Origin: Gemmatimonadota bacterium
GTDB lineage: Bacteria > Latescibacterota > UBA2968 > UBA8231
Direction: 5' to 3'
DNA: 64,000 nucleotides
NCBI GenBank assembly: GCA_038153405.1
Contig: JAYOYH010000003.1
Location: 107,258-171,257 of the forward strand
In this document: positions 1 through 25,839 of the stretch, in pieces
How the letters are laid out: each line of letters starts with the position of its first letter
How positions within the stretch are numbered: the first letter of the stretch is position 1
The notes under the pieces: model-generated
The model's database searches: none
What the model saw: the letters and a program-made list of their open reading frames with translations, nothing else
Told to the model about the DNA's origin: nothing
Made by a program: the position numbers and the translations under genes

Positions 1-1402
1 AACCAGGTTCGGCGCTGCCGAACTGCGCCTTAATTTCGTATACGAAGTCGGTCATCTCGCCCAAATTGACCTCGGCTACGCCGCGGACCGGACTGGGTTC
101 ATCAAGGCGAGCCACCTCACCGACCACGCGGGTGGCCAGGATGGGCGACGTCTCAATCCACAGCGAGTCTAGCCGGGCAAACTCGTCAAAGCGCTCGCTG
201 TGCAAGACGACTTTTAGCTGTAGGTGGGAGCCTCGGTTGAGGCTGAGTAAATTGCCCGACTCGGTCGTCGGAAAGGACCAGAACGTCCAGTTTTCCGTGT
301 CGGACTCTACGCCGGCGCGAATACCGGGCTTGGGACGCACGGACAGCGTCACCGATCCGCCGAGGCCATCCGAGTTCGTAATATTGTTCGTCTGGTTTTT
401 CAAAACGTTCTGATAGCGTTCCTGCGTAACGACGACGCGGGTCCCCATATCGGTATATTCGTAATAAATATCGGGCACCGGATCGACCCCCGTGCGCGCC
501 TCGACTTCGGCCCACACGTTGGCTGTAGGGGCCTCGACCGCGACCCCATCAACCATGCGCATCGGCGTGATATGCCAATACAGGCGCCCAAAGTTGACGA
601 CGTCGTCCAACTCTAAAATCGTCGTCTTATAGTTGGCGCGCTTGGGCATGCCCTCACCGTACAGTGAAAATTCGCCCACCGTGCCTTTTCGCGCCGTGCC
701 CCCCGTATTATCTGAAATGGCGTTGATATCGAGGATGGAATCTAGCCGCTTGTAGCGCACGTAGCGCACATACTGCTTGGGAAAGTTGGCAAAGATAATG
801 GGGCGCGTATTTTCACGAGCTTCGGTTATAATTTCCCCAATGGGGCTCGAAGTATTCAGCACATCGTTGTTGGTATCGGGTGCAATAGATACTTCGAAAG
901 CGGGTATGGCGTCCTGATCCAACGGCGTGCCGTCCGAGCGAAAAAAACCGGCATCTGGCGTGCGCAATGCAAAGCGGAACAGTGGAATGGGGACGCCCAA
1001 GTCGATGGTGTAATACTCGCTGGCAATGCTGTTACTCGTAGTGGGGTTATAGGTCAGGCCCGTTCCGTCGATTAGATTCAAAGCGTTATCTACCGTCGAA
1101 CTGGTCCCACAGCACCCCTTCCACGCGCGCGGTCGCTCGCCGTCGACAAAGCCCAATTCATCCGGATTTTTCTTTGGCGACCAATCCTCGAGAAATATAA
1201 AAACAGTCGAGTCGGACGTTACGAGTTTGGGCTGTATGGACGTGCGCGCCGCTTCGAAGTCAATCATAACCTGCGCTGAATCATTGCCAGCCCAGGGCAA
1301 ACCGCTGCCACCCATCTTCCACAAAGTAACTTCGGCATTACCCATCGAAGCACCCGCGACAAGCGTTATAAGCGCCAACCAACGCTTTGCAATTGACCTC
1401 AT
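1..1402 (-). CDS. secreted discoidin-like surface protein, C-terminus cut by window edge; paralog of 12151..14121
   Basis: Minus-strand frame is open from ATG 1402 (AGGAG 8 nt upstream) to position 1. It is absent from the ORF track because there is no stop in the window. Signal peptide MRSIAKRWLALITLVAGASMG. Segments GEFSLYGEG, TENWTFWSFP and DSLWIETSPILATRVVGE align with AEFELYGNG, TENWSAWSLP and DSLVIEHSIPPAAAVVGE of ORF 12151..14121. Confidence 0.6.
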   Translation of the reverse strand, partial: MRSIAKRWLALITLVAGASMGNAEVTLWKMGGSGLPWAGNDSAQVMIDFEAARTSIQPKLVTSDSTVFIFLEDWSPKKNPDELGFVDGERPRAWKGCCGTSSTVDNALNLIDGTGLTYNPTTSNSIASEYYTIDLGVPIPLFRFALRTPDAGFFRSDGTPLDQDAIPAFEVSIAPDTNNDVLNTSSPIGEIITEARENTRPIIFANFPKQYVRYVRYKRLDSILDINAISDNTGGTARKGTVGEFSLYGEGMPKRANYKTTILELDDVVNFGRLYWHITPMRMVDGVAVEAPTANVWAEVEARTGVDPVPDIYYEYTDMGTRVVVTQERYQNVLKNQTNNITNSDGLGGSVTLSVRPKPGIRAGVESDTENWTFWSFPTTESGNLLSLNRGSHLQLKVVLHSERFDEFARLDSLWIETSPILATRVVGEVARLDEPSPVRGVAEVNLGEMTDFVYEIKAQFGSAEPG

Positions 1403-1548
1403 GTTTCTACTCCTCTTATTGGGATCCTGCCACAACTGTGACAACAAGCCAAAGAGATCGCCACCGATTGCCGTTTTCCTAGTTGGAAAAGTCAAACTTT
1501 TCCTTTAAAAGTAAGGCTATGAACGCCCCTAAGCAATATATTGCCCCC

Positions 1549-3327
1549 TTACGGGGAAGACGCGGATTGGGCGTAACTGGCCAATTTCTCCGCGTTAATG
1601 CCCCAGTCACCTGCATACTGGCTGCGCAACTGGGATGTCAGCGATTCGACGCGCTGCTGCTGTTTGGCCTGACGGGCATAAAAGTCTGCCTTTTCTCTGC
1701 TCGCCTCAAAGGTCTGCACTCTCTCCGGCAAGCGCTCTAACACCATAAAAATGGAGTAGGCCGTTTTCAACGTGCGCGGCTCCCGCAGCGACGAGGGAAT
1801 GGGCTCTTTTAACTCAATGGGCCCCAATAGCTCGTTTAGCGGGGCATTTACAGCCGCATCCATCAGCTCTTTGTAGACTATCCGCTCAAATGCGCGCATG
1901 GCAAAGAGCCCGCCATTCTCATCGGCGTAGCGGCGGATGCTATGGCGGGTGGCCAAATCGGCCATATCCGCTCCCTGGCGAATTTGCTGCAACAGCTCTT
2001 CGGCCTGCGCCCGTTGGGCAACCATGATTTCTTGGAAGACGATTTCCTCGGGAATTTTATAGCGTTCGGGGTGGGCATCGTAGTGGGCACGGGCATCCGC
2101 TTCGTCAACTTCAATGGCCCTTTCCATTTCTTCTTTCCACCACTTCTCCAGTAGTTTTCGCTCGCGCTGGCTCTGGACGGTGCTCCGCACGGCGGGATGT
2201 TCGGCAAAGCCTTCCCGGCGTGCGATCTCGACCAGCATCAGGTCGGGGGCCGCCTTCGTGCGCATGCGCTCATCGACCTGCGCGCTGTCTACAGTGGCGG
2301 AACCCAAGCGCGTATTGATCAGCACGTACATGGCCTGCTCTAAGGTTATTTGGCCACCGTCGAATACATACAGCGGTGCGGCAAAGAGCTCTGGCGTCAA
2401 ATCGGGACTGCCCGGCGATGCGTTCCACGCGTTCAGGAAGCGATGCAAATTCTCTGTATTGACGCGCAGGTGTAAGCGATGCTGCAGGCTGTCGATATGC
2501 GCCCGTTTGAGCCGGTTGAACTTGTCCATCATTGTAGAGCGCTGGATCACGGTTCGGTACTTCTCGTAGGGCAACAGCTTCTTGTCTACGACTTTGGCCA
2601 ACTCCCAACCCTGCGCCGTGCGGAAGGGTTCGCTGACGTGCCCAATGTCCATCGAAAACACTTGTCGATAGACTTGGTCGGAAACGCGATCGAAAGCGTA
2701 GTACGTATCAAAAGCACCGCCATTATCCGCCGTGCTGTCATCGAGCGAATAGGCCTGCGCCAATTCCTCAAACGAGCGCTGTCCCGAAGTAATCAGGGCG
2801 TACAGCGAATCCGCTAGGGTTCGCGAGGCCACTAGGATGTGCGCACCGCGCACGGCAAAGCGCGCGGGATGAGAGGCAAAGCTCGCGCGCAGTTCGTCTT
2901 CGGTTATCAGGATATTCTGCCCTACCGTCTGATGCAGGTAGGTTTCGACCATCGTCTTTTGCTCGATCAAGCGCAGCGATTCCTTTAAAGCAGGATCGTC
3001 ACCCAGACCGCTGCGCTCCGCTTCGCGTATGATTAGCTTTTCGTCAATAAGGCTCAGCAGATGGTCTCGGTGGCGCTGGACGCCTTCAGCCGCCGACTTG
3101 TGCACGGGCTGAATTTGCGCCTCGTACTCGCGCAGCTGGTGCGCTTCAATGGGCCCGTCGCCAACGACGGCCAGCGCATCATCCGGCACAATTTTACGGC
3201 CTGCAACCGGTGCTGCCTGCTGCGCCGATTCCCGCCCTTGCTCTGCGCAGCCGGCATACAGCAGGCCGACCAGCACAAACCCCGCCGCAAGCACCGCTCG
3301 GTGTACTTTACCCACTCTGAACATCAT
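1549..3327 (-). CDS. PpiC/parvulin-type peptidyl-prolyl isomerase lipoprotein (SurA/PrsA-like periplasmic chaperone)
   Basis: 592 aa. Lipobox LLYAGC after an N-terminal hydrophobic segment. Parvulin-like block VRGAHILVAS. ATGA overlap with the upstream TPR gene. Confidence 0.55.
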   Translation of the reverse strand: MMFRVGKVHRAVLAAGFVLVGLLYAGCAEQGRESAQQAAPVAGRKIVPDDALAVVGDGPIEAHQLREYEAQIQPVHKSAAEGVQRHRDHLLSLIDEKLIIREAERSGLGDDPALKESLRLIEQKTMVETYLHQTVGQNILITEDELRASFASHPARFAVRGAHILVASRTLADSLYALITSGQRSFEELAQAYSLDDSTADNGGAFDTYYAFDRVSDQVYRQVFSMDIGHVSEPFRTAQGWELAKVVDKKLLPYEKYRTVIQRSTMMDKFNRLKRAHIDSLQHRLHLRVNTENLHRFLNAWNASPGSPDLTPELFAAPLYVFDGGQITLEQAMYVLINTRLGSATVDSAQVDERMRTKAAPDLMLVEIARREGFAEHPAVRSTVQSQRERKLLEKWWKEEMERAIEVDEADARAHYDAHPERYKIPEEIVFQEIMVAQRAQAEELLQQIRQGADMADLATRHSIRRYADENGGLFAMRAFERIVYKELMDAAVNAPLNELLGPIELKEPIPSSLREPRTLKTAYSIFMVLERLPERVQTFEASREKADFYARQAKQQQRVESLTSQLRSQYAGDWGINAEKLASYAQSASSP

Positions 3328-4742
3328 TGATTTTCCCCTTTCAACTGGCGCGCTTTATTTCTGTGCTGCTCGCTGAGCGCGACTTCTCCTATCTGTTTGT
3401 ACGCTTCGGCCAATCCGAGGTGGGCCGGTGCCCAGGTTTGATCGAGAGAGATCGCCCTTTGGAGCGCGGCAACGGCCTCATCGGTGCGCTGCTGACTGAG
3501 ATAGACCTGGGCCAGCAGCGTCATGGCCGGCACGTGTTGGGCATCGGTCTTCAGTATTTGCTCATAGGCGGCAGCGGCCTGGTCCAAATGGCCGGTGCGG
3601 AAATAGATATTGCCCATGTTGTTGAGCGCCTGCAGGTTGTCTGGGTTCACCGTTACGGCGCGCACGTAGTGGGGCAGCGCCACGCCGGTAAAACCTAGAC
3701 GTCCGTAAATATAACCCAGATTGTAATGCGCTTCGCCGTCGTCTGGGTCGCTGCGCACGCGTTCCTGAAAGTATTCGATCTCCTTTTCAAAGCTCTTTAT
3801 TTTTTCGTACGCCTCCAGCGACTTTTGCCCGGCACTTTCGCGGCCTTGCCGCAGGTAAATCTGCCCCAGCATGCGAAAGGATTCTGCGATGCCGGGTTCG
3901 ATAAGTATGGTTCTCCGCAGGCGTTCGGCAGCAGCGGCCAGGTCGTTATGACGCATATCGAGCCGAGCGATTTGCACGTGGGCCTGCGCATAGGTGGTGT
4001 CGATGGCCAGCGTCTTTTCGAATTGGGCGCGCGCCGCCGCATCGTCACCACTATTTAGCAGCGCTTCACCCAGCGCATAGAGGGCGCGAGCGTGCTGTGG
4101 ATTGCCTGCGATAACTTGTTGCAAGTGCGACTTAGCTTGGTCATACTGACCTAGGTGTACGTTTACTAACCCAAGATTAAAGCGCGTATTTTCGTCGTCC
4201 GGTGCCAGTTCCAGCGCACGTCCATATTCGCGCGCCGAATCGGCCAAGCGGCCCTGCTTACTGTATACGGCAGCCAAATTGCGACGGGCGGCGACGTAGG
4301 TCGAGTCGAGGTTTAAGGCAGCGCGAAAAGCGGATTCGGCTTCGTCAAAGCGGTTGAACTTCAGATGAAAAATACCCAGCCCAACCTGCAGAGATGGGTT
4401 GTGCGGTTCGAGCGCAACGGCCATGGCATAGAGTTCACCCGCTTTGTCAACATCGCCCAGCGCCAAATGAGTGCGCCCCAAACCAATCAACACCTCGCCC
4501 GACTGTGGGTTTTGCCGGCGCGCTTCTTCAAACGCGGCAAGCGCATCGCGGTACTTACTCTGAGCAAGCAGGGCACGCGCGCGCAGGCGCGGATCGCGCA
4601 TGGCCGTCTCGACATCGGCCTGCGGCCGTTTTAGCTGCTGAATATCGCGCTCTTCCAGTGCAACAGTCGGCTCTCGCTGCTCGACATCGCTCTGGCCGCA
4701 CGCCATGAACAATGCGGCACTACACAGTATCCAATGCTTCAC
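3324..4742 (-). CDS. TPR-repeat lipoprotein
   Basis: 472 aa. Lipobox LFMACGQ. Repeated 34-residue A/L/Y/G-rich TPR units throughout. ATGA overlaps at both ends. Confidence 0.7.
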   Translation of the reverse strand: MKHWILCSAALFMACGQSDVEQREPTVALEERDIQQLKRPQADVETAMRDPRLRARALLAQSKYRDALAAFEEARRQNPQSGEVLIGLGRTHLALGDVDKAGELYAMAVALEPHNPSLQVGLGIFHLKFNRFDEAESAFRAALNLDSTYVAARRNLAAVYSKQGRLADSAREYGRALELAPDDENTRFNLGLVNVHLGQYDQAKSHLQQVIAGNPQHARALYALGEALLNSGDDAAARAQFEKTLAIDTTYAQAHVQIARLDMRHNDLAAAAERLRRTILIEPGIAESFRMLGQIYLRQGRESAGQKSLEAYEKIKSFEKEIEYFQERVRSDPDDGEAHYNLGYIYGRLGFTGVALPHYVRAVTVNPDNLQALNNMGNIYFRTGHLDQAAAAYEQILKTDAQHVPAMTLLAQVYLSQQRTDEAVAALQRAISLDQTWAPAHLGLAEAYKQIGEVALSEQHRNKARQLKGENQ

Positions 4743-6379
4743 GGGACGTCACTCTCCTCGATTGTCACGTACTGATTTGCCGTTATATCGTCGAGCGATT
4801 GCCGCTGTCCCGAAGGCCAGCGTACCTCAACGCGCTCTGCGCCAATCGCATCGCCCAATCCAAAGAGCAGGCGAGCATCGTGAGACGATAGATAGCTTCC
4901 ACCCGCTCGCCGCTCGCGCAGCTGTCTCTTGCCCCCGACCCAGACCTCCACAACGGCGCCAACGGCATCGCGATTGCTTCCTCGCCCTACCAGTTGAATG
5001 CCCAGCCAGCCCTGCGCATGGCCCCCGTCGTTGCGCAGCAGCGCAGCCGGACCAGCCGAGTTATTGATGGCAATATCGGCATCGCCGTCGTTGTCTATAT
5101 CGCCAAACGCCGCTCCGCGACTCACCTGTAGCAGCTCAAAGCCGGGACCGGCTGCCGCATTCTCCACAAAGCGTCCCTGCCCGTCGTTGTCCAACAATTG
5201 GTTGCGCTGAGGGTAGGTGCTGGCGTGATCGATTTTTTCGACGTTGTCGTAGACGTGCCCATTGGCCACGAATATATCCAGATCGCCGTCGCCATCGTAG
5301 TCGAGAAAACCAGTGCCAAAGCCCAAATACGCCATGCTCGCCTTCTGCACGCCGCTGGCTACGGTAGCATCAATAAAAAAGCCGCTGCCGGCGTTGCGGT
5401 AGAGCGTATTGCTCTCCCACTGAAAATTCGTTACAAAAAAATCCTGCAAGCCATCGCCGTCTACATCGCCCAAGTCGACGCCCATGCCCGCTTCGACGCC
5501 GCCCTCGTCGTTGAGACTAGTGCCGCTGGCAAGGCCGCGTTCGACAAAGTGTGAACCGTCGTTGCGATAGAGCATATTGGGCGTCATATCGTTGGCTAAG
5601 TAGAGGTCGACATCGCCGTCGCCATCGGAGTCGCCCAGGATAACGCCGAGCTCTTTGCCGTCCGTGCTGTGCAAGCCCCACTCGCGCGTGCCATCGCGCC
5701 AGGTCCAATTCGCTTCGGCTCCGCCGTTGATGTAGAGGCGATCGACCTGACCGAAGAACTTGCGCGGGTCGCAGTAGAGTCGCTCATCGCTGTTGCCCAC
5801 CCAGCAGTTGACCAGATCGGCTCCGAGTGGGTACTCGACGTAGTTGCCCACAAAAAGGTCCAAGTCCCCGTCCGAGTCGACGTCGGCAAAAGCCGCGCTA
5901 GTGCCCCAACCGGCATCGTCGACGCCCTGTGATGCATCGACAAACGAACCATTGGCGCCATTTCTATAGAGGACATTGGCGCCAAAATTAGAAACGTAGA
6001 GGTCGGGATACCCATCGGCGTCGTAGTCCCCCACTACGGCTCCCATGCCGTAGCCGACGTCGTCAACCCCCGCCCGACTGGCAATCTCTACAAAGCGATT
6101 GGCGCCCTCGTTGCGGTAGAGCGCATTAGGTGCCAAGGGGGCCTGCGTCAATCCGGGGATGCGGCCGCCGTTGACCCAGTACAAGTCGAGCATGCCATCG
6201 ACATCGAAATCGATACAGGCCACACCCGAACCATAGGTTTCGGGCAGGTAGCGCATGCCTTCGGCGCCGTTCTGGTGTAGAAAAGAGACGCCGGCCTCTG
6301 CGGCTATATCGACGAATTGCACCTGTCCAAATGCACTGCCAACAAACAGGCAAAGCCACGCTAAAGAGCGCGCCATCAT
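4739..6379 (-). CDS. FG-GAP/VCBS-repeat protein with C-terminal ASPIC/UnbV domain (CRTAC1 family), secreted
   Basis: 546 aa. Signal peptide MMARSLAWLCLFVGSAFGQ. Many DxDGDGxxD Ca-binding beta-propeller repeats. C-terminal GSNRDAVGAVVEVWVGGKRQ...VRWPSGQRQ matches the ASPIC/UnbV signature. Confidence 0.75.
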   Translation of the reverse strand: MMARSLAWLCLFVGSAFGQVQFVDIAAEAGVSFLHQNGAEGMRYLPETYGSGVACIDFDVDGMLDLYWVNGGRIPGLTQAPLAPNALYRNEGANRFVEIASRAGVDDVGYGMGAVVGDYDADGYPDLYVSNFGANVLYRNGANGSFVDASQGVDDAGWGTSAAFADVDSDGDLDLFVGNYVEYPLGADLVNCWVGNSDERLYCDPRKFFGQVDRLYINGGAEANWTWRDGTREWGLHSTDGKELGVILGDSDGDGDVDLYLANDMTPNMLYRNDGSHFVERGLASGTSLNDEGGVEAGMGVDLGDVDGDGLQDFFVTNFQWESNTLYRNAGSGFFIDATVASGVQKASMAYLGFGTGFLDYDGDGDLDIFVANGHVYDNVEKIDHASTYPQRNQLLDNDGQGRFVENAAAGPGFELLQVSRGAAFGDIDNDGDADIAINNSAGPAALLRNDGGHAQGWLGIQLVGRGSNRDAVGAVVEVWVGGKRQLRERRAGGSYLSSHDARLLFGLGDAIGAERVEVRWPSGQRQSLDDITANQYVTIEESDVP

Positions 6380-8097
6380 GGCCCATCACCGGCGGCTGGT
6401 TCGACGCCGCCGCGGCCGGGCTCAATAGAGAGGATCTGGTTGGCCTGCACGTCGCGCAATACCTCGCGCCGACCGTCGGGCCAGCGCACCGTCAGTCGAT
6501 CGACGCGCTCGGCCTTGCCCAAGCCAAAGTGCAGCCGCATATCGTCCTGCGATATATAGCCCGTTCCCGAACGCACCTCGCGCAGTTGCGTGCGCCCCCC
6601 CACTTCAGCCACGACGCGCGCTCCCACCGCCTGCCTATTGTCGCCGTCGCCAAGCAAGCGCACCATGAGCCAATTGTTGTCGTTGCCGCCGTCGTTGCGC
6701 AGGACGGTAGGCTCATCGTCGATATTGACGACGACGATGTCGAGATCGCCGTCGTTGTCCAAATCGCCAACGGCGTGACCCCGGCTCGATTTTTCCACGG
6801 CAAACCCCGGTCCCCGTCCCTTCCCGACCTCAGTAAAGGCCCCCGCCCGGTTTTCAAAGAGCTGGTTGCGCTGGGCGTAGGCCGTGCCGATATCGTGGCG
6901 ATCGACGGCCGGATAGACGTGGCCGTTTGCTACGAATAAATCGTCGTCGCCGTCGTTATCGTAATCGAAAAAACCGGTCCCCCAGCCCAGATAGGTAATG
7001 CTTTCTTTGCCCAGAGACGTCGTAAAGCTGGCATCGGTAAAAAAACCGCGGCCGTTGTTTTGATAGAGCGTATTGTTATCGTGGGAAAAGTTGGTAACAA
7101 AGAGATCGAGATCGCCGTCGCCGTCGTAGTCGCCGCTGGCCAACCCCATGCCCCCCTGCTCTCTGCCGTCCTCGCTGTAAGCGGACGCCGTTATCAGCGC
7201 GACATCGCTAAAGCGACCGCCGTCGTTGCGATAGAGCGAATTGGGCGTCGAATCGTTGGCGATGTATATATCCAGATCGCCGTCGTTGTCGTAATCGCCG
7301 GCCAGCGCGGCAAAGCCGTAGTAGTCGTGCGGCTCTAACCCAAATTCTTCACTGGCATCGACAAAGTGCCAACCGCTTTCCCGCCCGTCGTTGCGATAGA
7401 GTCGATCGGGCTCGCCCGGCATACCGCGCGGACCGTAAAAGACATTTATCCCGCGCCAATTGCAGAAGCTCATGTCGGCAGGCACGTACTCTGGATCGAA
7501 ATCTATGTAGTTGGTCAGATAGAAATCGAGGTCGCCATCGCCGTCGTAATCGCCAAAGGTCGCCGCTGAACTCCAGCCGGGAAAGTCTACTCCCACTTGG
7601 GCGGCGACGTCGCGAAACGTGCCGTCGCCCATATTTTGGTAGAGCGCGTTGGGGCCGTAATTAGACAGATACACATCGCTGTGGCCATCGGCGTTAAAGT
7701 CGACGACGGTGACGCCCATGCCCCAACCGATATGGGCAATGCCCGCCTTTTCTGCAACGTCGACAAAGCGCCAGTCTCCCTCGTTGCGAAACAGCGCCGC
7801 GCGCGGTTCCCGGCCAGCGGGATAGCCCTGCAAGCGCGAACCATTGACCATAAAAAGGTCCAGATCGCCGTCGCCGTCGTAATCAAAAAGGGCGGTGCCA
7901 CCCGTATTGCACTCGACGATATGTTCTTTTTCCGGCGTGCCAGAAACCATTCTGTGAACGATGCCCACTTCGACTGCCACGTCGTAAAACTGCGGACCGG
8001 TTCCTATTTCCGTTCCCGAATCGGTCTTCTCTTCAGCACATCCGATTGCCAACAACAATAGCGCCACACCGCCAATCCGCGCATTCCATCGCATCAC
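6376..8097 (-). CDS. FG-GAP/VCBS-repeat lipoprotein with ASPIC/UnbV domain (CRTAC1 family), paralog of 4739..6379
   Basis: 573 aa. Lipobox LLLAIGCAEE. Same DGDGDLD repeat pattern as its neighbour. C-terminal DNRQAVGARVVAEVGGRTQ...VRWPDGRRE. Confidence 0.75.
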   Translation of the reverse strand: MMRWNARIGGVALLLLAIGCAEEKTDSGTEIGTGPQFYDVAVEVGIVHRMVSGTPEKEHIVECNTGGTALFDYDGDGDLDLFMVNGSRLQGYPAGREPRAALFRNEGDWRFVDVAEKAGIAHIGWGMGVTVVDFNADGHSDVYLSNYGPNALYQNMGDGTFRDVAAQVGVDFPGWSSAATFGDYDGDGDLDFYLTNYIDFDPEYVPADMSFCNWRGINVFYGPRGMPGEPDRLYRNDGRESGWHFVDASEEFGLEPHDYYGFAALAGDYDNDGDLDIYIANDSTPNSLYRNDGGRFSDVALITASAYSEDGREQGGMGLASGDYDGDGDLDLFVTNFSHDNNTLYQNNGRGFFTDASFTTSLGKESITYLGWGTGFFDYDNDGDDDLFVANGHVYPAVDRHDIGTAYAQRNQLFENRAGAFTEVGKGRGPGFAVEKSSRGHAVGDLDNDGDLDIVVVNIDDEPTVLRNDGGNDNNWLMVRLLGDGDNRQAVGARVVAEVGGRTQLREVRSGTGYISQDDMRLHFGLGKAERVDRLTVRWPDGRREVLRDVQANQILSIEPGRGGVEPAAGDGP

Positions 8098-9353
8098 TGA
8101 ATTCCCTTCCCTGCAATCTCCACTGCGCGCTGACGCGCCGACCTACCCGCTTCAATTTGTCCCTGCTGTATGAGTGCCGTGCCCAACCCGTGCAGCGCTT
8201 CGGCCAGAGTATCATCCGTGACCAATGCACTTCGAAATGCGGCTTCGGCCAGAGCGTATTCTCCCCGCACCAGATAGCTATTTCCCCTGTTTTTATGCGC
8301 AAGGCCGTAGTCGGGTTTGAGGGCAACCGCTTTGTTAAAATGGTTTAGGGCTTCTTCGTGCTGACCCTTTAGCGAAAAGACAACGCCGAGATTGTGCTGG
8401 GCTTCTGCATACGTCGAATCGGCCGTTACTGCCGCACCAAACTGCGCCAGTGCCCCATCCCACTGTTCTCGCCTTAGGTAGACCAACCCCAGATTGAAGT
8501 GGCCCGCCGCTCGCTCCGCTTCCGCTAGCGGTCGACTTCCGCGATAGAGCAGTCGCCGATAGTGATCCTCGTCCATATCAGAGCTGCTCAACCGCTGGAA
8601 TAGTTCGATCATCTGCTGCCCCTCGTCAACGCGACCGGTGCGCGCATAGAGCGTCCCCAGACTATAATAGGCTTCGGTGTAGGATGGATCGGCCTCGATC
8701 GTTTGTTCCATAGCGGCAATCGCCTTGGTATCGTTCTGGCGCCGCAGATAGATCAGCGCCAAATAATAGTGGGCATGGGCGCTGCTCGGATCGAGATCAA
8801 TCGATTGTTTCAACGCCGTTTCTGCGCGATCGTTTTCCCCACGAGAACAGAGAATAAACCCCTCGACAAAATGTCCGTAGGCATTGCCTGGGGCTAACGC
8901 CAAACCGCGCTCGGCAGCCTGCAGCGCTTCGTCGAATCCGTCGCCGCGCTCGTTGTAGAGCAGAGCCAACGCCCAGTGGGCATCTGCCAAGCCGGGTGCC
9001 AGTTGGAGAGCTCGCTTAAAAGAGGCGATGGCCTCCGTCTTCAGGTGTTCCTTTGCCTGGGCCACTCCCAGGTAAAAATGGGCATCGGGATCTTCGGGCA
9101 ACCGTTCGACCAAACGCGCAAACACCTCGCGTGCCGCGCGGGTACGACCCTCTTGGAGATAGAGCCAACCCAATTCATACTGGGACGGCGACGGACCGGA
9201 CGAACGGCTTTTTTCGTACTCCTCCAGCGCCGCCGTTGGCCTGATCGGCCTCAGTTCATAAGGCGCTTCCGCCGAGCAGCCAATGATCCAACAGGTCGCT
9301 AATCCAACCAGCAGATAGGCATAGGTATAGAGCGATAAATTGCGTTTTCTCAT
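8094..9353 (-). CDS. TPR-repeat lipoprotein
   Basis: Internal ATG at 9353 gives MRKRNLSLYTYAYLLVGLATCWIIGCSAE, a lipoprotein signal. The longer track ORF reaches 9434. TPR units throughout. Confidence 0.65.
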   Translation of the reverse strand: MRKRNLSLYTYAYLLVGLATCWIIGCSAEAPYELRPIRPTAALEEYEKSRSSGPSPSQYELGWLYLQEGRTRAAREVFARLVERLPEDPDAHFYLGVAQAKEHLKTEAIASFKRALQLAPGLADAHWALALLYNERGDGFDEALQAAERGLALAPGNAYGHFVEGFILCSRGENDRAETALKQSIDLDPSSAHAHYYLALIYLRRQNDTKAIAAMEQTIEADPSYTEAYYSLGTLYARTGRVDEGQQMIELFQRLSSSDMDEDHYRRLLYRGSRPLAEAERAAGHFNLGLVYLRREQWDGALAQFGAAVTADSTYAEAQHNLGVVFSLKGQHEEALNHFNKAVALKPDYGLAHKNRGNSYLVRGEYALAEAAFRSALVTDDTLAEALHGLGTALIQQGQIEAGRSARQRAVEIAGKGIQ

Positions 9354-9391
9354 CAAGTAGAAAATACTCGCTATTGGCCGACAGACAACAA

Positions 9392-9429
9392 CAAGCGTCC
9401 GACCTCCCCGAGAGGAGGCCGGACGCTTG
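9392..9429 (-). other. strong stem-loop (10-bp arms CAAGCGTCCG / CGGACGCTTG, nested palindromic loop) between the outer-membrane-like gene and the TPR gene
   Basis: Read directly. Possible intra-operon attenuator or RNA processing site. Confidence 0.45.
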
Positions 9430-9467
9430 CGCAAGGTATGGCTAATGGGTGAAGATTAGCGGAAGGT

Positions 9468-12098
9468 CTACTGCTGCAAACCGGCGAAGACGCGGATGAA
9501 AACAATCGAGTTCGTCTCCGTTGCTTCTGCAAAAGCGCGCCGCTCCCAACGGAAACCGGTATTCATTGTCAGCGAGTAGCCTAAGTATGCCGACTGATTC
9601 GACAATTGGAACGCCAACACAGTACCGGTAAAATCGTCGACGTAGCCCGGAGGCAGGATCTCGGGACGCTCTTCCAGGTTGCGGAAAAGGTTCCATTCGA
9701 CACCGTATTCCAAGAAGGTCGTCGGCAGGATATAGTACTTGGAGGTCAGCATGTAAAACTGCGACCACTCCGAAATATCCAATTCCGTGCTGAAGGTCGG
9801 ATTGATTTTGCGGTAGATGCTCTTCCAACGCGGCCAGAACGAAAGATTGTCGGTAATCGGCAAGGGATAGTCGACCTTGTTGATTACGCCGAGAAAAAGG
9901 CGATCGCTTTTCGCCTCGGCTTCGTCACCGCGCTGCTTAAAGAAGTCGTATTTGACCTTGTTGTATACGTTGAGATTCTTCAGGCGCAAATAATCCAAGG
10001 TCAAATAGCCGGTATAAACAAAGGTGTCCTGCGTAATAAGGGGATCGACCACTTCGGTAAATCCATCCGGATCGACCCACTGAATCACATCGTCGGCAAT
10101 ATCGTCCTGGACGGAACGCACATATTGGAAAACGCGGGCGTCGATACCGGGCCAATTCCATCGCCCGGTGGCGATGGCGTAATTCATAGCGGCCGTGCGC
10201 TTGCTGCTGATCTCGTCCATGGCCGAACGGCCGACGGTCAGCTTGACGTGTTCGTTGAGAAATGCGCCGCCGTAGACGTTGTACCCATCGCGATCCTGTC
10301 GGTAGGGATAGTCAGCATAAACGTCGTTTTCAAAGCGGTCGATGACGTTGTTGTTGTTCATATCAACGCCAAAGAGGAACTCGGGTGGATCGACGTTATA
10401 GCGCAGAAACGGCTCGGCAAAATCGGGCAGGCCGTTAGAGTTCTGGTTAAAGTCAGAAATAAAGTCCGAGTTCTCATCGTATCCGGGAAAGACCTGAGGA
10501 TCGGCTTGTCCACCGATGCCAAAGGGCGATTCACCGAAGGCAAAGTCGCCATTCTGCCACAGGCGCTTCCAGTCGGGAAAGCGATCCTGGTCATCGTTAT
10601 CGTCGACCGCTTCAAACGTGTAGCGATCCGGCTGCTCGTAGTCGACAAAGCCGCGGGCATCCGTTATAAAGGCATTGGTTCGATATTCGGGCTCCATGCG
10701 GTAGAGTTCGCCGTAGGCAAACCAAGGATAAGCATCCTGTGAAGCGGTCAGGTAGTAGGCCATGCCCTCGTCTTCAGCCAGTTCGTGCTCCTGAAAGTTC
10801 TGGTTTGGAAAGCGGCGATAGTCGCGGCTCATCGCCACTTCCGAGCGCAGATTAAACCCTTTTACATCGTCAATATCGAAACTGAGACCGATGATGTCCT
10901 TGCCGGTAGGCAAGCCGTACTCAAAGCGGATAAAGCGCTGGTTCGAGCCGTCGCTGACGTTGCCGTGAGCGCGTTCGACCATCAGGAAAACCGGTTCGCC
11001 CTGACTGTTGACCTGCAAGTTGGAGGTAATATCGATGCGGTAGTCGTTGGCAATAACCAGTTCGAATTCGATTTTCTGAATTTCCTGGAACGTGGTTATC
11101 TGATCATCGGGCTGCTGGCGGAAGTCGCGCGAAATATTGTACGTGAGTTCAAGCGTCTCGGCGCCGTCTGCTTCAATAACCCCGGCACGGCGGACCCCGC
11201 CGCGCGGCGAAGGAACGATTTCGGGGTGATCAACGCCGTTGATAATAATGCGCTCGGCAAAAAGCTGGGCACCGCCGTCGCCGTCCTCAGGAGAGTCGTC
11301 GGAAAGGCGCAAGACGATGGTCTCTACGTTACCGCCGTTCTGCGCCTCGGTCAGCACGCCCTTCAGCGAGTTGTCCCCCAATTTACGCCCCGTTGCAAAG
11401 TTCGATACGTTGAGGTAGGTCAGGCCAAGGTTAGAGAAATCGCCCAACTGAACTTTGGAATGGATGCCGAAGAGGTTGGTCATATCGCCGAGAATTTGCC
11501 CCGTTGAATTCTCAAACTGAATCCGCGTGCCCGGCGATGCAAGCCGCGAGGCGATGATCGTCGTCTGGTATTTGTCTGAGGCGAAATCCCACTGCAAGCC
11601 GTTAAAGGCCGGCTTGGAAAAGGTCAGCGGAGTAAGGGTCGAGCGAATGGCTTCGCCAATGGTCATCGACGAGTAGAACTGTCCTTTGGACATCGAGGAA
11701 ACGACCATATTGCTAAACCAAGAGGAGTACTTGGGCCCCTTGCGCACAATACTGCCCGACGTCGTCGGACTATCGATCGTCCAGTCAAAAATCTCAAAGC
11801 CACGCGTTATATAGTTGCCGTACATGTCGTAGGTGCGAAAGCCTTCCAGTTCGGTCGACACGTAGCGCTCGTAATTTTCGCGGGCGTAGTTGCTGTATTC
11901 TTCACCGGTCCAGCGATAGAAGTTGTACAGGCTCTGGGGATATTGCCACTTTCTCACCGACGGCGTCATCGCCATATCGTAGACATCCACACCATGTGGC
12001 TCTCGCCCTGTGACGAAGCCGAGGCGCTGTGCGTATACGCTGTCGCCCAACAGGACGACACCGATAACGGCAACGTAAAAAGCGCGTAACAAACACCT
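9468..12098 (-). CDS. large uncharacterised outer-membrane-like (beta-rich) protein
   Basis: About 877 aa from GTG 12098 (GGGAGGG RBS). Signal-like VRCLLRAFYVAVIGVVLLGDSVYAQ. Rich in Y/F/W/N/G with alternating hydrophobic patterns. No recognisable enzymatic motif. The track start at 12185 would overlap the upstream gene. Confidence 0.4.
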   Translation of the reverse strand, partial: RCLLRAFYVAVIGVVLLGDSVYAQRLGFVTGREPHGVDVYDMAMTPSVRKWQYPQSLYNFYRWTGEEYSNYARENYERYVSTELEGFRTYDMYGNYITRGFEIFDWTIDSPTTSGSIVRKGPKYSSWFSNMVVSSMSKGQFYSSMTIGEAIRSTLTPLTFSKPAFNGLQWDFASDKYQTTIIASRLASPGTRIQFENSTGQILGDMTNLFGIHSKVQLGDFSNLGLTYLNVSNFATGRKLGDNSLKGVLTEAQNGGNVETIVLRLSDDSPEDGDGGAQLFAERIIINGVDHPEIVPSPRGGVRRAGVIEADGAETLELTYNISRDFRQQPDDQITTFQEIQKIEFELVIANDYRIDITSNLQVNSQGEPVFLMVERAHGNVSDGSNQRFIRFEYGLPTGKDIIGLSFDIDDVKGFNLRSEVAMSRDYRRFPNQNFQEHELAEDEGMAYYLTASQDAYPWFAYGELYRMEPEYRTNAFITDARGFVDYEQPDRYTFEAVDDNDDQDRFPDWKRLWQNGDFAFGESPFGIGGQADPQVFPGYDENSDFISDFNQNSNGLPDFAEPFLRYNVDPPEFLFGVDMNNNNVIDRFENDVYADYPYRQDRDGYNVYGGAFLNEHVKLTVGRSAMDEISSKRTAAMNYAIATGRWNWPGIDARVFQYVRSVQDDIADDVIQWVDPDGFTEVVDPLITQDTFVYTGYLTLDYLRLKNLNVYNKVKYDFFKQRGDEAEAKSDRLFLGVINKVDYPLPITDNLSFWPRWKSIYRKINPTFSTELDISEWSQFYMLTSKYYILPTTFLEYGVEWNLFRNLEERPEILPPGYVDDFTGTVLAFQLSNQSAYLGYSLTMNTGFRWERRAFAEATETNSIVFIRVFAGLQQ

Positions 12099-12150
12099 CA
12101 CGATGGGACCCTCCCTCTTTATGGATCGTTTATCTTTCAAGAGCACTTCA

Positions 12151-14121
12151 TCAGTAAGCCACGGCGATGGTGCCCATGCGCACAAAATCGCCTATGCCGC
12201 TCTGAACCTCCAACACGACCAGATAATTGCCCGGGGGAACCGCTTCGCCCGCTCCATTTTTCCCATCCCAGGACTCCGTATAGATTCCGCCTACCTGATC
12301 GCGATCAACTAATGTGCGAATGAGCCTGCCCGCCAAGTCGTATATGGCCACTTTGATCGGCTTGGGCTCCGAGATCTGGATCACCGTGTACTCGATATCG
12401 ATTGCATCGTTTACGCCGTCGCCATTGGGCGTAAATACAGGCGGATCAAACGCAACGCCGCGCACAATCTCGCCCACCGATTCTTGGGTAAGCGCCACGC
12501 GCAGAGAGTTCGTAGATACGTCGAAATTGGCATCGCCTTCGAGCACGGGCTGGCCGAGAATATCCGATTGGGTATCCCATACCGTGCCGGTGAAAATGGT
12601 GCCAAATACCACGGCAGACCCGCGGAACAGCACGCGCAGGGGCACGTTGTTGTCGAAGTCTATGCGATTTTGCGTAAAAATCACTTCGAGACCGTCTTCT
12701 GCAGCGGTAACCCGATCCGGCTGTACTGTCTGCAAGGGGCTGCCCATTTGTAACTCGACGAATTCAGCCGGGGTGGGCGTATCGATGCGCAGTGCATCAA
12801 AGCCATTTTCCGATGGATCTAGTATCGTTGCGCGTATGTCGTAGGCGAACAACACCTCTTCTCCACCGTCTATACTCGGCAACACCACGGCATCGTCTTT
12901 ATCGATAACGCCAATATTAACCGGGGGATTCGGATCATCGGCTAGGGAAATCTCGCCGACGACAGCGGCGGCGGGCGGAATCGAATGCTCTATTACGAGC
13001 GAGTCGATGCGCGCAGTTTGTGCCACCGATTCACTTTCCATCACGATTTGCAGTTGGAAATACGGACGCGGACTGGGCAGCGGGATGCGCTGCCCCGACG
13101 TCAGCGGCAGCGACCAGGCGCTCCAATTTTCCGTATCCTCTTCAATGCTGCCCTTCTCGCCCGAAGGCAGCGAATTGTAGTCCGACTCGCTTACGACGAC
13201 CTGACTCACCGCGCGCGTATTCTCGTCAATAACGCGCTTGTAGTGGATGAGCGGACTGTCATCGAGACCCGTTTTCATGCGGATGGCGACCGACGTAGCA
13301 CCGCCATCGGCGACCTCGATCAGCTGGCCGTCGATCAGTTCAAGGGTGCGCGTTGCCCACGAAATGGCTCCGTAGTTTGATACGCTGCCCAAATTGACGA
13401 CGTTGCTGACGTAGGTCGCACGCGGGACGAATCCGTTGCCGTAGAGCTCGAATTCGGCCAGTTCAAATGGGTTGCGCGACCCCACGCGCAGGCGGATAAA
13501 GCGTATGAACTGCTGGGGGAACTTCATAGCGAAGACGCTGTTGGGATTGACCGGAATATCGCGCAGCAGCGAAAAGAGCGGCTGTTCGTTAACGTAGGAC
13601 ACTCCGTCGCTGACGAAGACCGTATGCTTGCGCACGAAATCCTCGGCATAGGGACGCCCGTTGGCCGTCGTCCCCTCCTGGCGAGGATAGAAGCGCAAAC
13701 TGTCGGCCGGCACGCGCGAGCCCAAATCAAAGACAAATGCGCGACCGTCTTGGTCAACGCCGGCGCGCTTAAAAAGATCCTCGGTAGACGTCAACCCATC
13801 GCCGTCGACAATGCGCAGCGCGTCGGAGCTTTGAAAGGCGGTATTATCCCACAGCGCCGCATCGCCTTCGCTCACGACGTCGTTGGGCTTTCCATAGCTC
13901 CATTTGAGCGTCGCGATGATGTTTTCATCGGGAGTAAAACCGCGAATCTGGATCGAACCGGGATTCGACCGATCGTCAACTTGCGCCCGCACCTGAACGA
14001 TATCGCCCCACCGGATGCCGCTACTACCCCCCAATATCCACTGGTCTGCCCGCGCCGATGCCGTTACCAGCATCGCACCCAACCCCGCCAGAAGCGCCAA
14101 GCGATAGGTTGAAAAGCCCAT
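12151..14121 (-). CDS. secreted discoidin-like surface protein with T9SS-type (FlgD-Ig-like) C-terminal sorting domain
   Basis: 656 aa. Signal peptide MGFSTYRLALLAGLGAMLVTASARA. C-terminal tail KVAIYDLAGRLIRTL...WDGKNGAGEAVPPGNYLVVLEV. Paralogous to the partial ORF 1..1402. Confidence 0.65.
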   Translation of the reverse strand: MGFSTYRLALLAGLGAMLVTASARADQWILGGSSGIRWGDIVQVRAQVDDRSNPGSIQIRGFTPDENIIATLKWSYGKPNDVVSEGDAALWDNTAFQSSDALRIVDGDGLTSTEDLFKRAGVDQDGRAFVFDLGSRVPADSLRFYPRQEGTTANGRPYAEDFVRKHTVFVSDGVSYVNEQPLFSLLRDIPVNPNSVFAMKFPQQFIRFIRLRVGSRNPFELAEFELYGNGFVPRATYVSNVVNLGSVSNYGAISWATRTLELIDGQLIEVADGGATSVAIRMKTGLDDSPLIHYKRVIDENTRAVSQVVVSESDYNSLPSGEKGSIEEDTENWSAWSLPLTSGQRIPLPSPRPYFQLQIVMESESVAQTARIDSLVIEHSIPPAAAVVGEISLADDPNPPVNIGVIDKDDAVVLPSIDGGEEVLFAYDIRATILDPSENGFDALRIDTPTPAEFVELQMGSPLQTVQPDRVTAAEDGLEVIFTQNRIDFDNNVPLRVLFRGSAVVFGTIFTGTVWDTQSDILGQPVLEGDANFDVSTNSLRVALTQESVGEIVRGVAFDPPVFTPNGDGVNDAIDIEYTVIQISEPKPIKVAIYDLAGRLIRTLVDRDQVGGIYTESWDGKNGAGEAVPPGNYLVVLEVQSGIGDFVRMGTIAVAY

Positions 14122-14870
14122 TACTGAACCGCCTCGCGCGGTTGCAGCGCCATATATATCTCGCGGTCAAATTTGTATTCGAGATCGATTGTTTCGACGG
14201 GCTCACCCTTATAGTCAAAGCGAATCGCCACGTCGGATACCCGCACGGAAAAGGCCCCAACGTCGTTGTGCAGTGTGGGAAAGACGATGTAGCCGGACGT
14301 CTCTTGACCGCTAAACACCATGTCGGGCGGATAGACGGTGCGCATTAATTGGTCGGTAATCGCCTCGTAGGCGCGGCGCTGCGTCCCTGCATAGGCACGC
14401 AAATAGGGGCTGAAATAATCTTCGAGTAGGCCTTGGTCCAGCACTTCGTATACGCGATCATTGGCCGAGGTAATTACGAGCGCATCGGGATCCAAGAAAA
14501 CCTTGGGATACTCGTAGTTCTTGACTTTCAGGAGCACGACGGTAAAGCGCTGCGGGGTCCAATCCTGCCCCCACGGCTTCCAATCGCCATAAGTATAGGG
14601 ATTGGTCGACTCTGCCCCGCGGTTCGAAGCCGATGCAAATTGGCGATTGAGAAAGTCGTCCCGGAGCACCTGTAGAGAAATTTCCAATCGATCTTTGGTG
14701 TAGACGATGGTTCCATCGTCGAGCACCGCCATACCTTCGTTTTGCGTCGATGCAGGCTCAGGCGCTGTCGCAAAGCGGCGCTGGCCAACCTGAGACACAC
14801 ACCCCGTCAACGCGGCAGCCCAAGCGGCGATCAAGACCATATTGCAAACGATTTTCCGCACGTTCATGGA
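14121..14870 (-). CDS. hypothetical lipoprotein
   Basis: ATG at 14870 gives MNVRKIVCNMVLIAAWAAALTGCVSQ (lipobox). Its TAA stop overlaps the ATG of the downstream gene (TAATG). Confidence 0.5.
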   Translation of the reverse strand, partial: SMNVRKIVCNMVLIAAWAAALTGCVSQVGQRRFATAPEPASTQNEGMAVLDDGTIVYTKDRLEISLQVLRDDFLNRQFASASNRGAESTNPYTYGDWKPWGQDWTPQRFTVVLLKVKNYEYPKVFLDPDALVITSANDRVYEVLDQGLLEDYFSPYLRAYAGTQRRAYEAITDQLMRTVYPPDMVFSGQETSGYIVFPTLHNDVGAFSVRVSDVAIRFDYKGEPVETIDLEYKFDREIYMALQPREAVQ

Positions 14871-15004: not shown

Positions 15005-15061
15005 ACACCCAAAGAGCCTATAGTGACATTGCTCTCAATACAGGCTTCAAGGTCTCAGACC

Positions 15062-15964
15062 TTAGTTGGCCATGCGAGCCTTGAGACGACCCCAGCTGTC
15101 GGCTTCGACAGCGGTGGAACCGCCGCCCGAACCGCCCGTAGCGCCTTCGGTCGGAACCGTAATGAAGTCGGATCCGTTGGAGTTGTCTTGGAACGCGCCG
15201 TTAACCGGCGTGGTACCCGGCTGCTTCTCGCGACCGGCTTCCGGATTCTCCGTCTCGTCAAACTGGAAGGTCAGACCAAAGATCTGATCCGGACCAAAGT
15301 TGTGGCGCTGGCTACCGGCAGGACCCGTTTTGTCGTGGAAAGTCCACGCGGCCTGCTTAACCTCGTAGGTATAGGTAACCGTGCTACCAGCCGGCTGGGT
15401 CAGCGGACGGGCATCCGGCGGATCCAGAGTCCAGCTGTAGATGAACCAGGGCTCCTCGGTCGACCACAGGATGCTCTCCTGCGGGACGTTGAAGATCCAG
15501 GTATCCTTCTGACCGGCAGCCGGCAGAATGCGAACGCCATACTGCTGACCAGAGGTCATCTCGGTCTCGTTGAAGTTTTCGCTCGAGTGATCCGGGTCGA
15601 CGATGATTTCCAGCGAGTCATCGTTCCAGTACTCCTGCGGGTTCTCGACGAAGAGACCCAGCGAGTCGTCCGTCACGCGGGCGAAATAGTACAGCGAGTT
15701 GTCCGGAGCAGAGCTCCAAGCGACGTACAGGACGCAGTCCCAGTCGTCTTTGGCCGGCGGCCATTCGCTACCCAGAATCTCGAACATCGTGTCCGGGGTA
15801 ATCGCAAAAGCCGGGTCGATCCAACCCCAGTCATCGTCGTTGCCGTCGATAACCATGGCATCGGGATTGGGAACCTGCGGCATGAAGTAAGAAGCCTGGT
15901 GAGCAAAAGCCACCGAAGTCGTCAACATCGCGCCCATGGCGAGAGCGATACCGAGTTTCTTCAT
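15062..15964 (-). CDS. secreted protein, possibly CBM9/DOMON-like carbohydrate-binding domain
   Basis: ATG 15964 with GGAGGT RBS. Signal peptide MKKLGIALAMGAMLTTSVAFA. Motif VIDGNDDDWGW...LYYFARVTDD resembles CBM9-type modules; the family call is tentative. Confidence 0.4.
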   Translation of the reverse strand: MKKLGIALAMGAMLTTSVAFAHQASYFMPQVPNPDAMVIDGNDDDWGWIDPAFAITPDTMFEILGSEWPPAKDDWDCVLYVAWSSAPDNSLYYFARVTDDSLGLFVENPQEYWNDDSLEIIVDPDHSSENFNETEMTSGQQYGVRILPAAGQKDTWIFNVPQESILWSTEEPWFIYSWTLDPPDARPLTQPAGSTVTYTYEVKQAAWTFHDKTGPAGSQRHNFGPDQIFGLTFQFDETENPEAGREKQPGTTPVNGAFQDNSNGSDFITVPTEGATGGSGGGSTAVEADSWGRLKARMAN

Positions 15965-16084
15965 CGCAAAACCTCCAATAGCTCGGAAATGGTTGAAAGC
16001 CCGGACGAACGGTCCGGGAGGGATTAGCATCGGGGAAAATCAATTCAAGAGCGTTTAGGTGAGCTACCTCCTTTTGTCTAAAAA

Positions 16085-23400: not shown

Positions 23401-23470
23401 AAGCACCTCAAAATAAAATGGGACGGGCAAACACCCCCATCCCACTCAAATTAAAACGCATTAGAAACAG

Positions 23471-25837: not shown

Positions 25838-25839
25838 AC

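Follow-up and report, generated by a model that had tools for sequence, protein, structure and literature searches.

A multi-copy cell-envelope gene module of Latescibacterota and its possible role in glycan capture and import

Gene row and its predicted products

The DNA analyzed here (64,000 nucleotides; positions 107,258 to 171,257 of contig JAYOYH010000003.1, assembly GCA_038153405.1; hereafter the window) comes from a bacterium named Gemmatimonadota that GTDB places in Latescibacterota. From the window start to position 15964, the list of open reading frames (ORFs) and their translations reveal an unbroken minus-strand row of genes for exported proteins, and this row represents one of several copies of a cell-envelope module that Latescibacterota possess. 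It is transcribed in the order CBM9-like gene, g1, g2, g3, g4, g5, g6, g7, g8, g9, with a DUF6785 gene lying divergently upstream. Gene orders are abbreviated below as 9 (CBM9-like), L (lipoprotein), C (lectin with a C-terminal sorting domain, CTD), B (barrel), T (tetratricopeptide repeat protein, TPR), A (ASPIC), P (peptidyl-prolyl isomerase, PPIase) and D (DUF6785). The features are:

15062..15964, minus strand: CBM9-like secreted protein heading the row as its tenth co-directional gene, beyond the interval first noted (Pfam CBM9_1, 2.6e-6)
14121..14867, minus strand: g1, 248-aa lipoprotein of the new family L, with a lipobox and no known relative
12151..14121, minus strand: g2, 656-aa secreted C protein with a discoidin/CBM32-like N-terminal domain, a beta-rich middle and a CHU_C/FlgD_ig C-terminal sorting domain
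9468..12101, minus strand: g3, 877-aa predicted outer-membrane beta-barrel B of an uncharacterized family; the start is the GTG that matches the homologues
9391..9430, minus strand: GC-rich hairpin between g3 and g4, read as a probable internal terminator or attenuator
8094..9353, minus strand: g4, TPR lipoprotein, 419 aa from the homologues' start (Pfam and NCBIfam)
6376..8097, minus strand: g5, CRTAC1/ASPIC-family lipoprotein with an FG-GAP beta-propeller and UnbV_ASPIC (Pfam)
4739..6379, minus strand: g6, CRTAC1/ASPIC-family secreted protein (Pfam)
3324..4742, minus strand: g7, second TPR lipoprotein (Pfam and NCBIfam)
1549..3327, minus strand: g8, SurA/PrsA-like lipoprotein carrying two PPIase domains of the parvulin (PpiC) type (Pfam, NCBIfam and structure matches)
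2..1402, minus strand: g9, second C-family paralogue, truncated by the window start; its relatives have 655-684 aa and an FlgD_ig tail
16334..18277, plus strand: divergent DUF6785/DUF6784 polytopic inner-membrane protein (Pfam DUF6785, 6e-125), read as the module's candidate OPT-fold importer

The initial annotation described nine consecutive minus-strand genes (g1 to g9), each product with a signal peptide or lipobox, as a single operon of about 15 kb. The nine genes are borne out by the ORF list and the export signals by all nine translations, in which we read lipoboxes for g1 (LTGC), g4 (IIGC), g5 (AIGC), g7 (FMAC) and g8 (YAGC) and type-I signal peptides for g2, g3, g6 and g9. Pfam and NCBIfam also confirmed every domain that had been named; g1, g3 and g9 have no family. 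The row therefore stands, but its extent does not, as the CBM9-like gene (signal peptide MKKLGIALAMGAMLTTSVAFA) and the divergent DUF6785 gene belong to it, and the hairpin at 9391-9430 speaks against a single transcript. Consecutive genes overlap by 4 nt from g4 through g8 and by 1 nt at g1/g2, an arrangement that would fit translational coupling. Two long plus-strand ORFs antisense to real genes (9606-10742 and 15023-16027) are artefacts of the GC-rich sequence.

The hairpin between g3 and g4 has an 18-pair stem, and the 126-nt intergenic RNA that contains it folds with -49.8 kcal/mol (z = -4.7), a stability reached by 0 of 200 shuffled sequences. Loci of the same type in other species (L008-L020, L027 and L031) carry a hairpin at the same position with differing stem sequences, and barrel genes that stand alone (L024-L026 and L083) end in U-tailed versions. 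The hairpin is probably an internal terminator or attenuator. Because it is strong, conserved and placed between g3 and g4, we favor two expression units over one simple transcript, the row probably being expressed as 9-L-C-B plus a T-A-A-T-P-C part that is reached by read-through or separately controlled. A scan for sigma-70 promoter and terminator consensus sequences gave the same counts as shuffled sequences.

The g3 product is a large predicted outer-membrane barrel of about 24 strands that belongs to no known family. Its AlphaFold2 model, built from 40 homologues and of moderate confidence (pLDDT 64, pTM 0.61), shows about 23-24 long antiparallel strands (residues 133-236, 397-469 and 604-875) and a well-modelled inserted beta domain (residues ~240-395). 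Foldseek matched the model in the PDB to outer-membrane barrels only, namely MtrB, Deinococcus SlpA, FimD, LptD and TonB-dependent transporters, at TM-scores of 0.2-0.3; the SlpA/SDBC barrels scored about E 1e-8 at a TM-score of about 0.2. The assignment as an outer-membrane barrel follows from the model and from these matches, and it agrees with the outer-membrane-like character initially ascribed to the protein. MtrB (of MtrCAB), LptD-LptE, the FimD usher and SlpA resemble the module in having 24 to 30-strand barrels with lipoprotein or inserted partners, but they share no sequence similarity with g3, and the module locus has no cytochromes, OstA, usher or SLH domains.

Sequence searches place g3 apart from described families. 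It has no Pfam or NCBIfam match, no PDB relative in sequence or profile searches and no SLH or coiled-coil tether domain in Pfam, and none of 40 members of the barrel family has a relevant Pfam match even at E ≤ 5. A relationship to PorP/SprF was considered and rejected, as there is no PorP_SprF match and hhalign comparison of the profile with PorP-like proteins returned a probability of 0.2%. The regions most conserved in sequence, with invariant columns, are the N-terminal region of about 110 aa (residues 21-133) and an Asp/Asn-rich segment (residues 500-600). When 1.84 billion representative proteins were searched with the family profile, 967 barrel-family clusters were retrieved, 306 of them at E ≤ 1e-30. 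Distant members that we sampled have 870-1057 aa, come from Ignavibacteria, Bacteroidota and metagenome-assembled genomes (MAGs) labelled 'Gemmatimonadota', and are all called 'hypothetical protein' where the source gives a name. Two of 10 distant members score below threshold for Pfam SlpA_C (16.8-21.7 bits against a cut-off of 35); the window barrel does not match it.

An orphan paralogue of the barrel (L022-L030, L083 and L086) is surrounded by genes for housekeeping and sugar metabolism, and none of the module's accessory genes lies within 10 kb of it. This paralogue may serve as a general-purpose form of the channel.

The two C proteins, g2 and g9, had been recognized as paralogues, and they are (25% identity, E 4e-35). 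In g2, Pfam CHU_C (39.5 bits) and FlgD_ig (34.2 bits) both exceed the gathering cut-off of 27, and the NCBIfam sorting-domain scores fall below theirs (TIGR04131, 27.2 versus 35; TIGR04183, 20.2 versus 23). A profile of 45 members related to g2 and g9 matches FlgD Ig domains at its C-terminus (1.6e-8) and, at positions ~110-250, CBM32/F5_F8 type C domains, including those of galactose oxidase, glycoside hydrolase-associated CBM32s and the galactose-binding domain of a sialidase (from 4.5e-5). CHU_C and FlgD_ig are found in 41 of the 45 members and F5_F8_type_C in 19 (best 1e-11), so that the earlier description as discoidin-like holds at the profile level. Outside the module, a 1348-aa subtilase at 42985-47031 on the minus strand combines Peptidase_S8 and an FG-GAP repeat with a C-terminal FlgD_ig domain. 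Since this protein carries the same tail, the organism evidently uses FlgD_ig as a sorting tag in general and not for the module alone.

The family profile of the CBM9-like protein matches the CBM9 of T. maritima Xyn10A (1i82; 4e-7). In the g1 family, the lipobox cysteine and many other residues are invariant across 17 diverse homologues, and no Pfam, NCBIfam or PDB relative was found; a comparison with the CBM9-like family revealed no relation. In an Ignavibacteria MAG, a 521-aa protein (L088:17622-19187) combines a g1-family match (E 1e-29) with Pfam DUF4159 and so links two families of unknown function.

Pfam and NCBIfam assign TPR domains to g4 and g7, which match generic TPR models only; SusD_RagB is not among the best 25 families listed for them. 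NCBIfam BcsC and PgaA models score 37-55 bits, against cut-offs of 367-858. In g8, Rotamase, Rotamase_2 and Rotamase_3 match two regions (168-250 and 407-543), and the nearest structures are PrsA and SurA; the SurA-like N-terminal domain scores below threshold (SurA_N_3, 16.2 bits versus 27.2), and all NCBIfam equivalog scores are far under their cut-offs. From their domain matches, g5 (FG-GAP_3 1.7e-53, UnbV_ASPIC 2.3e-24) and g6 (FG-GAP_3 7.8e-40, UnbV_ASPIC 3.6e-21) can be classed as CRTAC1/ASPIC-UnbV proteins, with FG-GAP propeller repeats followed by UnbV_ASPIC; g5 matches human CRTAC1 (9etn) at 4e-29. We know of no established function for the bacterial members of this family.

The AlphaFold2 model of the DUF6785 protein (pLDDT 87, pTM 0.89) has only one kind of strong Foldseek match in the PDB, barley Yellow Stripe 1 of the OPT family (TC 2.A.67), on which it superposes over its full length with a TM-score of 0.62-0.67 (7wst and 7wsr; E 7e-10 and 2e-9, probability 1.0). 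The model thus assigns DUF6785 an OPT-family transporter fold, although sequence identity is only 12-13%. At E ≤ 0.001 Pfam reports DUF6785 and DUF6784 alone, with no OPT match, and no PDB sequence matches at E ≤ 5.

Recurrence of the module in other genomes

Scanning a single genome for each GTDB species, we found at least 513 loci encoding g3 relatives, of which the best 80 were analyzed with 10-kb flanks. In all, 86 loci were examined (85 retrieved plus the window) by comparing iterated hidden Markov models (HMMs) of the window proteins with all ORFs, and HMMs of transporter families were added to the search. The closest relatives come from MAGs labelled Latescibacterota and, in some cases, Gemmatimonadota or Handelsmanbacteria. 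For the counts below, we used the 54 non-redundant loci of Latescibacterota species genomes whose 10-kb flanks are complete.

The barrel gene is accompanied by a CTD lectin gene in all 54 loci, by TPR in 51, the lipoprotein in 50, the CBM9-like protein in 49, PPIase in 45 and ASPIC in 39. Every locus has one to three CTD lectin genes immediately upstream of its barrel gene. The barrels fall into five subfamilies, each with its own gene order: the window type (type I) and four paralogous ones, with the barrel bracketed:

Type I (window): 9 L C [B] T A A T P C
Subfamily 1: D C C C [B] 9 L P T; divergent form (T A P L C 9)<-[B] D C C
Subfamily 2: P 9 L C C C [B] A T
Subfamily 3: 9 L C C C [B] T
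Subfamily 4: 9 L C C C [B] P T

The window order recurs in 15 full-flank loci of different species, so that the gene order is indeed kept in relatives, and the component set recurs in the four further architectures. The conserved core is 9-L-C-B, usually joined by P and T. It is not the TPR-ASPIC-ASPIC-TPR-PpiC block that the initial annotation had put forward, as ASPIC is present in only 39 of the loci. The proposal of a dedicated envelope and surface assembly that brings along a SurA/PrsA-like PPIase and TPR lipoproteins does hold, and this assembly is conserved. Barrels of different paralogue groups are 47-50% identical, at least 3-5 loci occur in a genome, and several can occupy one chromosome: among the best 80 loci, OZ247580.1 has at least five, OZ241889.1 at least four and OZ244897.1 at least four. 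Such multi-copy paralogy is the pattern of substrate-specific uptake loci.

Of the 54 loci, 49 include a gene for an inner-membrane importer within 10 kb. The importers are of several kinds: the OPT-fold DUF6785, ATP-binding cassette (ABC) systems of the CUT1 and CUT2 types, and major facilitator superfamily (MFS) transporters. In type I, the divergent slot upstream of the CBM9-like gene holds DUF6785 in five full-flank loci including the window, and also in L008; in 10 others (L009, L011-L013, L015-L020) the same slot holds SBP_bac_1 and two BPD_transp_1 genes. Subfamily 2 has the same ABC genes in the slot after T, or DUF6785 in L049. DUF6785 and a CUT1 ABC importer therefore swap at one position in orthologous loci, and on the strength of this exchange DUF6785 is predicted to be a transporter. 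Subfamily 3 adjoins an MFS transporter, and subfamily 4 is flanked by Peripla_BP_1, ABC_tran and BPD_transp_2 genes (CUT2-type) together with GFO_IDH_MocA and a xylose-isomerase-like TIM barrel. LacI, sugar oxidoreductase (GFO_IDH_MocA) or epimerase (AGE-family) genes accompany some loci as well.

More distant loci differ in composition. One runs from a GlcNAc-2-epimerase-family gene through DUF6785, CUT1 ABC and LacI genes to a CTD lectin, a small PorP-like barrel and a B-like barrel. Another, in an Ignavibacteria MAG, comprises MFS, ExbB, ExbD, ExbD, a CTD lectin, a PorP-like barrel, a B-like barrel, a long TPR protein and two DUF4159 proteins, the second of which holds an L-like domain. In four distant loci (L084:3699-4601, L085:13581-14450, L088:9042-9974 and L089:18215-19087), the CTD lectin gene and the big barrel gene are separated by a gene for a ~300-aa outer-membrane barrel that weakly resembles PorP/SprF, with scores of 26.3 bits in L084 (cut-off 22.3) and 19 bits in L088; window-type loci have no such gene.

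Possible function and competing explanations

Exported carbohydrate-binding modules, a large barrel, chaperone and scaffold lipoproteins, multiple copies and linkage to importers and regulators lead us to propose, as the simplest explanation, that the module is a Latescibacterota-specific system for capturing and importing glycans or related nutrients, comparable to a polysaccharide utilization locus (PUL) but built from proteins unrelated to SusC/SusD. We judge the chances of this proposal to be evenly balanced. The CTD lectin proteins would be exported and displayed on the cell surface via their CHU_C/FlgD_ig sorting domains, where the discoidin/CBM32-like lectins, the CBM9-like protein and the small lipoprotein would together take hold of a glycan or oligomer. 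In the outer membrane, the 877-aa barrel with its ~24 strands would form a conduit or platform; at the periplasmic face, the SurA/PrsA-like PPIase and the TPR lipoproteins may chaperone or scaffold assembly of the complex, with the CRTAC1/ASPIC beta-propellers as optional accessory factors for binding or processing. The adjacent importer, here the OPT-fold DUF6785, would then move the captured substrate across the inner membrane. What the analysis shows is the anatomy of the genes, their domain and fold assignments, the recurrence and paralogy of the module, its importer linkage and the transporter fold of DUF6785; we infer that the components reside at the surface and that substrate passes through the barrel, as well as what the substrate is chemically and what the PPIase, TPR and ASPIC proteins do.

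The proposal draws on a likeness to the PULs of Bacteroidota, which likewise encode, in multiple copies, a barrel together with helical-repeat lipoproteins and CBM-type beta-sandwich surface proteins, and which are linked to inner-membrane sugar importers and regulators; in the module, importers accompany 49 of 54 loci and LacI, GFO_IDH_MocA or AGE-family genes only some. The differences are nevertheless substantial. The barrel of the module has no Plug or TonB_dep_Rec domain, TonB-dependent transporters being only weak generic fold matches, and there is no SusD_RagB protein and no carbohydrate-active enzyme (CAZyme) in the core. The surface proteins carry T9SS-type (type IX secretion system) C-terminal domains and not lipid anchors, and the module adds a dedicated SurA-like PPIase and CRTAC1 propellers. 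Locus-encoded outer-membrane nutrient capture is a known kind of system, whereas the barrel, the lipoprotein, the OPT-fold importer, the CTD-tagged lectins and the dedicated PPIase match no system described so far. A search of the accessible literature found no description of the gene combination or of DUF6785, as the initial annotation had anticipated for the combination.

Several observations weigh against an uptake function. The g3 model is only of moderate confidence (pLDDT 64), and the most conserved regions (21-133 and 500-600) are poorly modelled or unmodelled. Pfam and PDB searches revealed in the barrel no recognizable plug, TonB box or signature of a known transport family, and none of the 86 analyzed loci contains an ExbB/ExbD homologue. 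A paralogue of the barrel, 66-71% identical, stands alone among housekeeping genes, which makes a general envelope role possible. The conserved core includes no glycoside hydrolase or lyase, and its flanks are not rich in CAZymes. Substrates of the OPT family are peptides or metal chelates, not sugars, although the context of DUF6785 suggests oligosaccharides over these. Finally, L089 holds DUF6785 and an ABC importer together, so that the two are not strictly interchangeable. Energization of the TonB type, suggested by the Ignavibacteria locus with ExbB and ExbD, is left unsupported by the lack of these genes in the 86 loci.

A bolder version of the uptake proposal is possible, though we hold it with distinctly less confidence. 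The 877-aa protein would found an unrecognized class of outer-membrane import channels, a functional counterpart of SusC in Latescibacterota with distant relatives in Ignavibacteria and other FCB lineages, and DUF6785 would be a new OPT-fold importer of oligosaccharides. The channel would work together with lectins displayed by the T9SS, with a lipoprotein dedicated to it and with chaperones of its own, and would dispense with a recognizable TonB-dependent plug. The whole would amount to a second, independently evolved 'selfish' machinery for glycan uptake.

The initial annotation had leaned toward adhesion, matrix or gliding, whereas the multiple paralogous copies, the importer in 49 of 54 loci and the LacI, oxidoreductase or epimerase neighbors of some loci point to the uptake of (glyco-)nutrients. 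A surface-display or adhesion complex close to that view would have the barrel merely anchor type-B-like CTD proteins, as PorP/SprF does with SprB and PG1035, while the lectins attach the cell to particles, hosts or matrix, PPIase and TPR proteins assist assembly and the importers are only loosely related. This is the main rival, though we consider it rather unlikely. A CHU_C-type secreted protein is encoded directly upstream of a barrel gene in T9SS type-B cargo/PorP-SprF pairs (SprB-SprF and PG1035-PorP; PMC9143113), binding of type-B CTD proteins to neighboring PorP-like proteins is known (PMC9143113), and the module likewise places one to three CTD proteins directly 5' of the barrel gene in every locus. 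CHU_C in g2 is above the Pfam threshold, distant loci do interpose a small PorP/SprF-like barrel between CTD protein and big barrel, and CRTAC1/FG-GAP propellers resemble integrin-type adhesion domains. Against this, the big barrel has no PorP/SprF similarity and is about three times larger. The module also differs from such pairs in that window-type loci lack a PorP-like gene and that the NCBIfam type A and type B sorting-domain models remain under cut-off for g2. Adhesion does not explain the frequent importer or its exchange at one slot, and the FlgD_ig-tailed subtilase (42985-47031) has no adjoining barrel, which indicates that the tag alone needs none. By analogy with Sus-like systems, the two explanations can coexist, the CTD proteins then serving as surface glycan-binding proteins of an uptake system. 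The T9SS core genes SprA/Sov, PorV and GldKLMN are not found within the 64-kb window.

It is less probable still that the barrel is a general structural or porin-like protein of the envelope, comparable to Deinococcus SlpA, with the accessory genes acting as biogenesis factors and decorations. The Foldseek matches to SlpA/SDBC barrels, the SlpA_C hits in two of 10 distant members, the orphan paralogue with its own terminator in a housekeeping context, the very high conservation (47-50% identity between paralogue groups) and the SurA-like chaperone encoded alongside would suit such a role, but the fold matches have TM-scores of only ~0.2, the Pfam scores are below threshold, and no SLH or coiled-coil tether domain is present; lectin domains, several specialized loci per genome and the importer linkage would also go unexplained. 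Export of an exopolysaccharide or matrix, with TPR scaffold and barrel working as in BcsC, PgaA or AlgK/AlgE and with DUF6785 and GT-C-type enzymes making or modifying the polymer, seems very improbable to us. TPR proteins do stand beside an outer-membrane barrel, and TMEM260-like, YfhO and AlgX-like SGNH genes lie at 24041-29414, the first two also in L001. However, the fold of DUF6785 is that of a secondary transporter and not of a synthase or GT-C enzyme, its alternative partners are binding-protein-dependent ABC systems and hence importers, no glycosyltransferase, synthase, polymerase or Wza/Wzc occurs among the conserved module genes or neighbors, and BcsC and PgaA scores are far under their cut-offs. 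A fortuitous juxtaposition of unrelated envelope genes can be practically dismissed, given that 15 full-flank loci from different species keep the same order, that four other architectures and distant phyla show the same component set, and that start and stop codons overlap.

The phylum Latescibacterota has a wide distribution across sediments, oceans, soils and sponges; its members are almost entirely uncultivated and are predicted to degrade polymers. If glycan capture and import is indeed the function, this phylum-wide, multi-copy module provides a concrete and testable candidate for how they take up polymers, and it adds a PUL-like system independent of SusC/SusD. A dedicated uptake system would fill a gap, since an analysis of Latescibacteria genomes assumed 'non-specific porins' for uptake across the outer membrane (PMC4454575). 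The proposal also supplies a working hypothesis for four families of unknown function, namely the barrel, the small lipoprotein, DUF6785 and bacterial CRTAC1/ASPIC proteins, and the paralogous loci could mark substrate range in metagenomes.

Surroundings of the module in the window

Upstream of the module, a minus-strand group at 24041-29414 encodes a protein O-mannosyltransferase that resembles TMEM260 and contains TPR repeats, a membrane protein of the YfhO family and an SGNH hydrolase/acetyltransferase similar to AlgX. The TMEM260-like and YfhO neighborhood is kept in L001:1-3275, a relative with 87% barrel identity. The products of these genes may glycosylate or modify envelope proteins.

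Between DUF6785 and the glycosyltransferase genes, the minus strand at 18321-23445 encodes a nuclease of the PD-(D/E)XK type, a helicase of the UvrD family and a 705-aa protein to which Pfam assigns no family. The possibility that the PD-(D/E)XK and UvrD genes represent an insertion was ruled out, because they are conserved neighbors in 10-14 type-I loci (e.g., L020:801-1619 and L017:2-823). Farther along, a 601-aa ORF without a Pfam family (35677-37482, minus strand) marks the lowest-GC segment of the window (GC 0.53, compared with ~0.60 around it).

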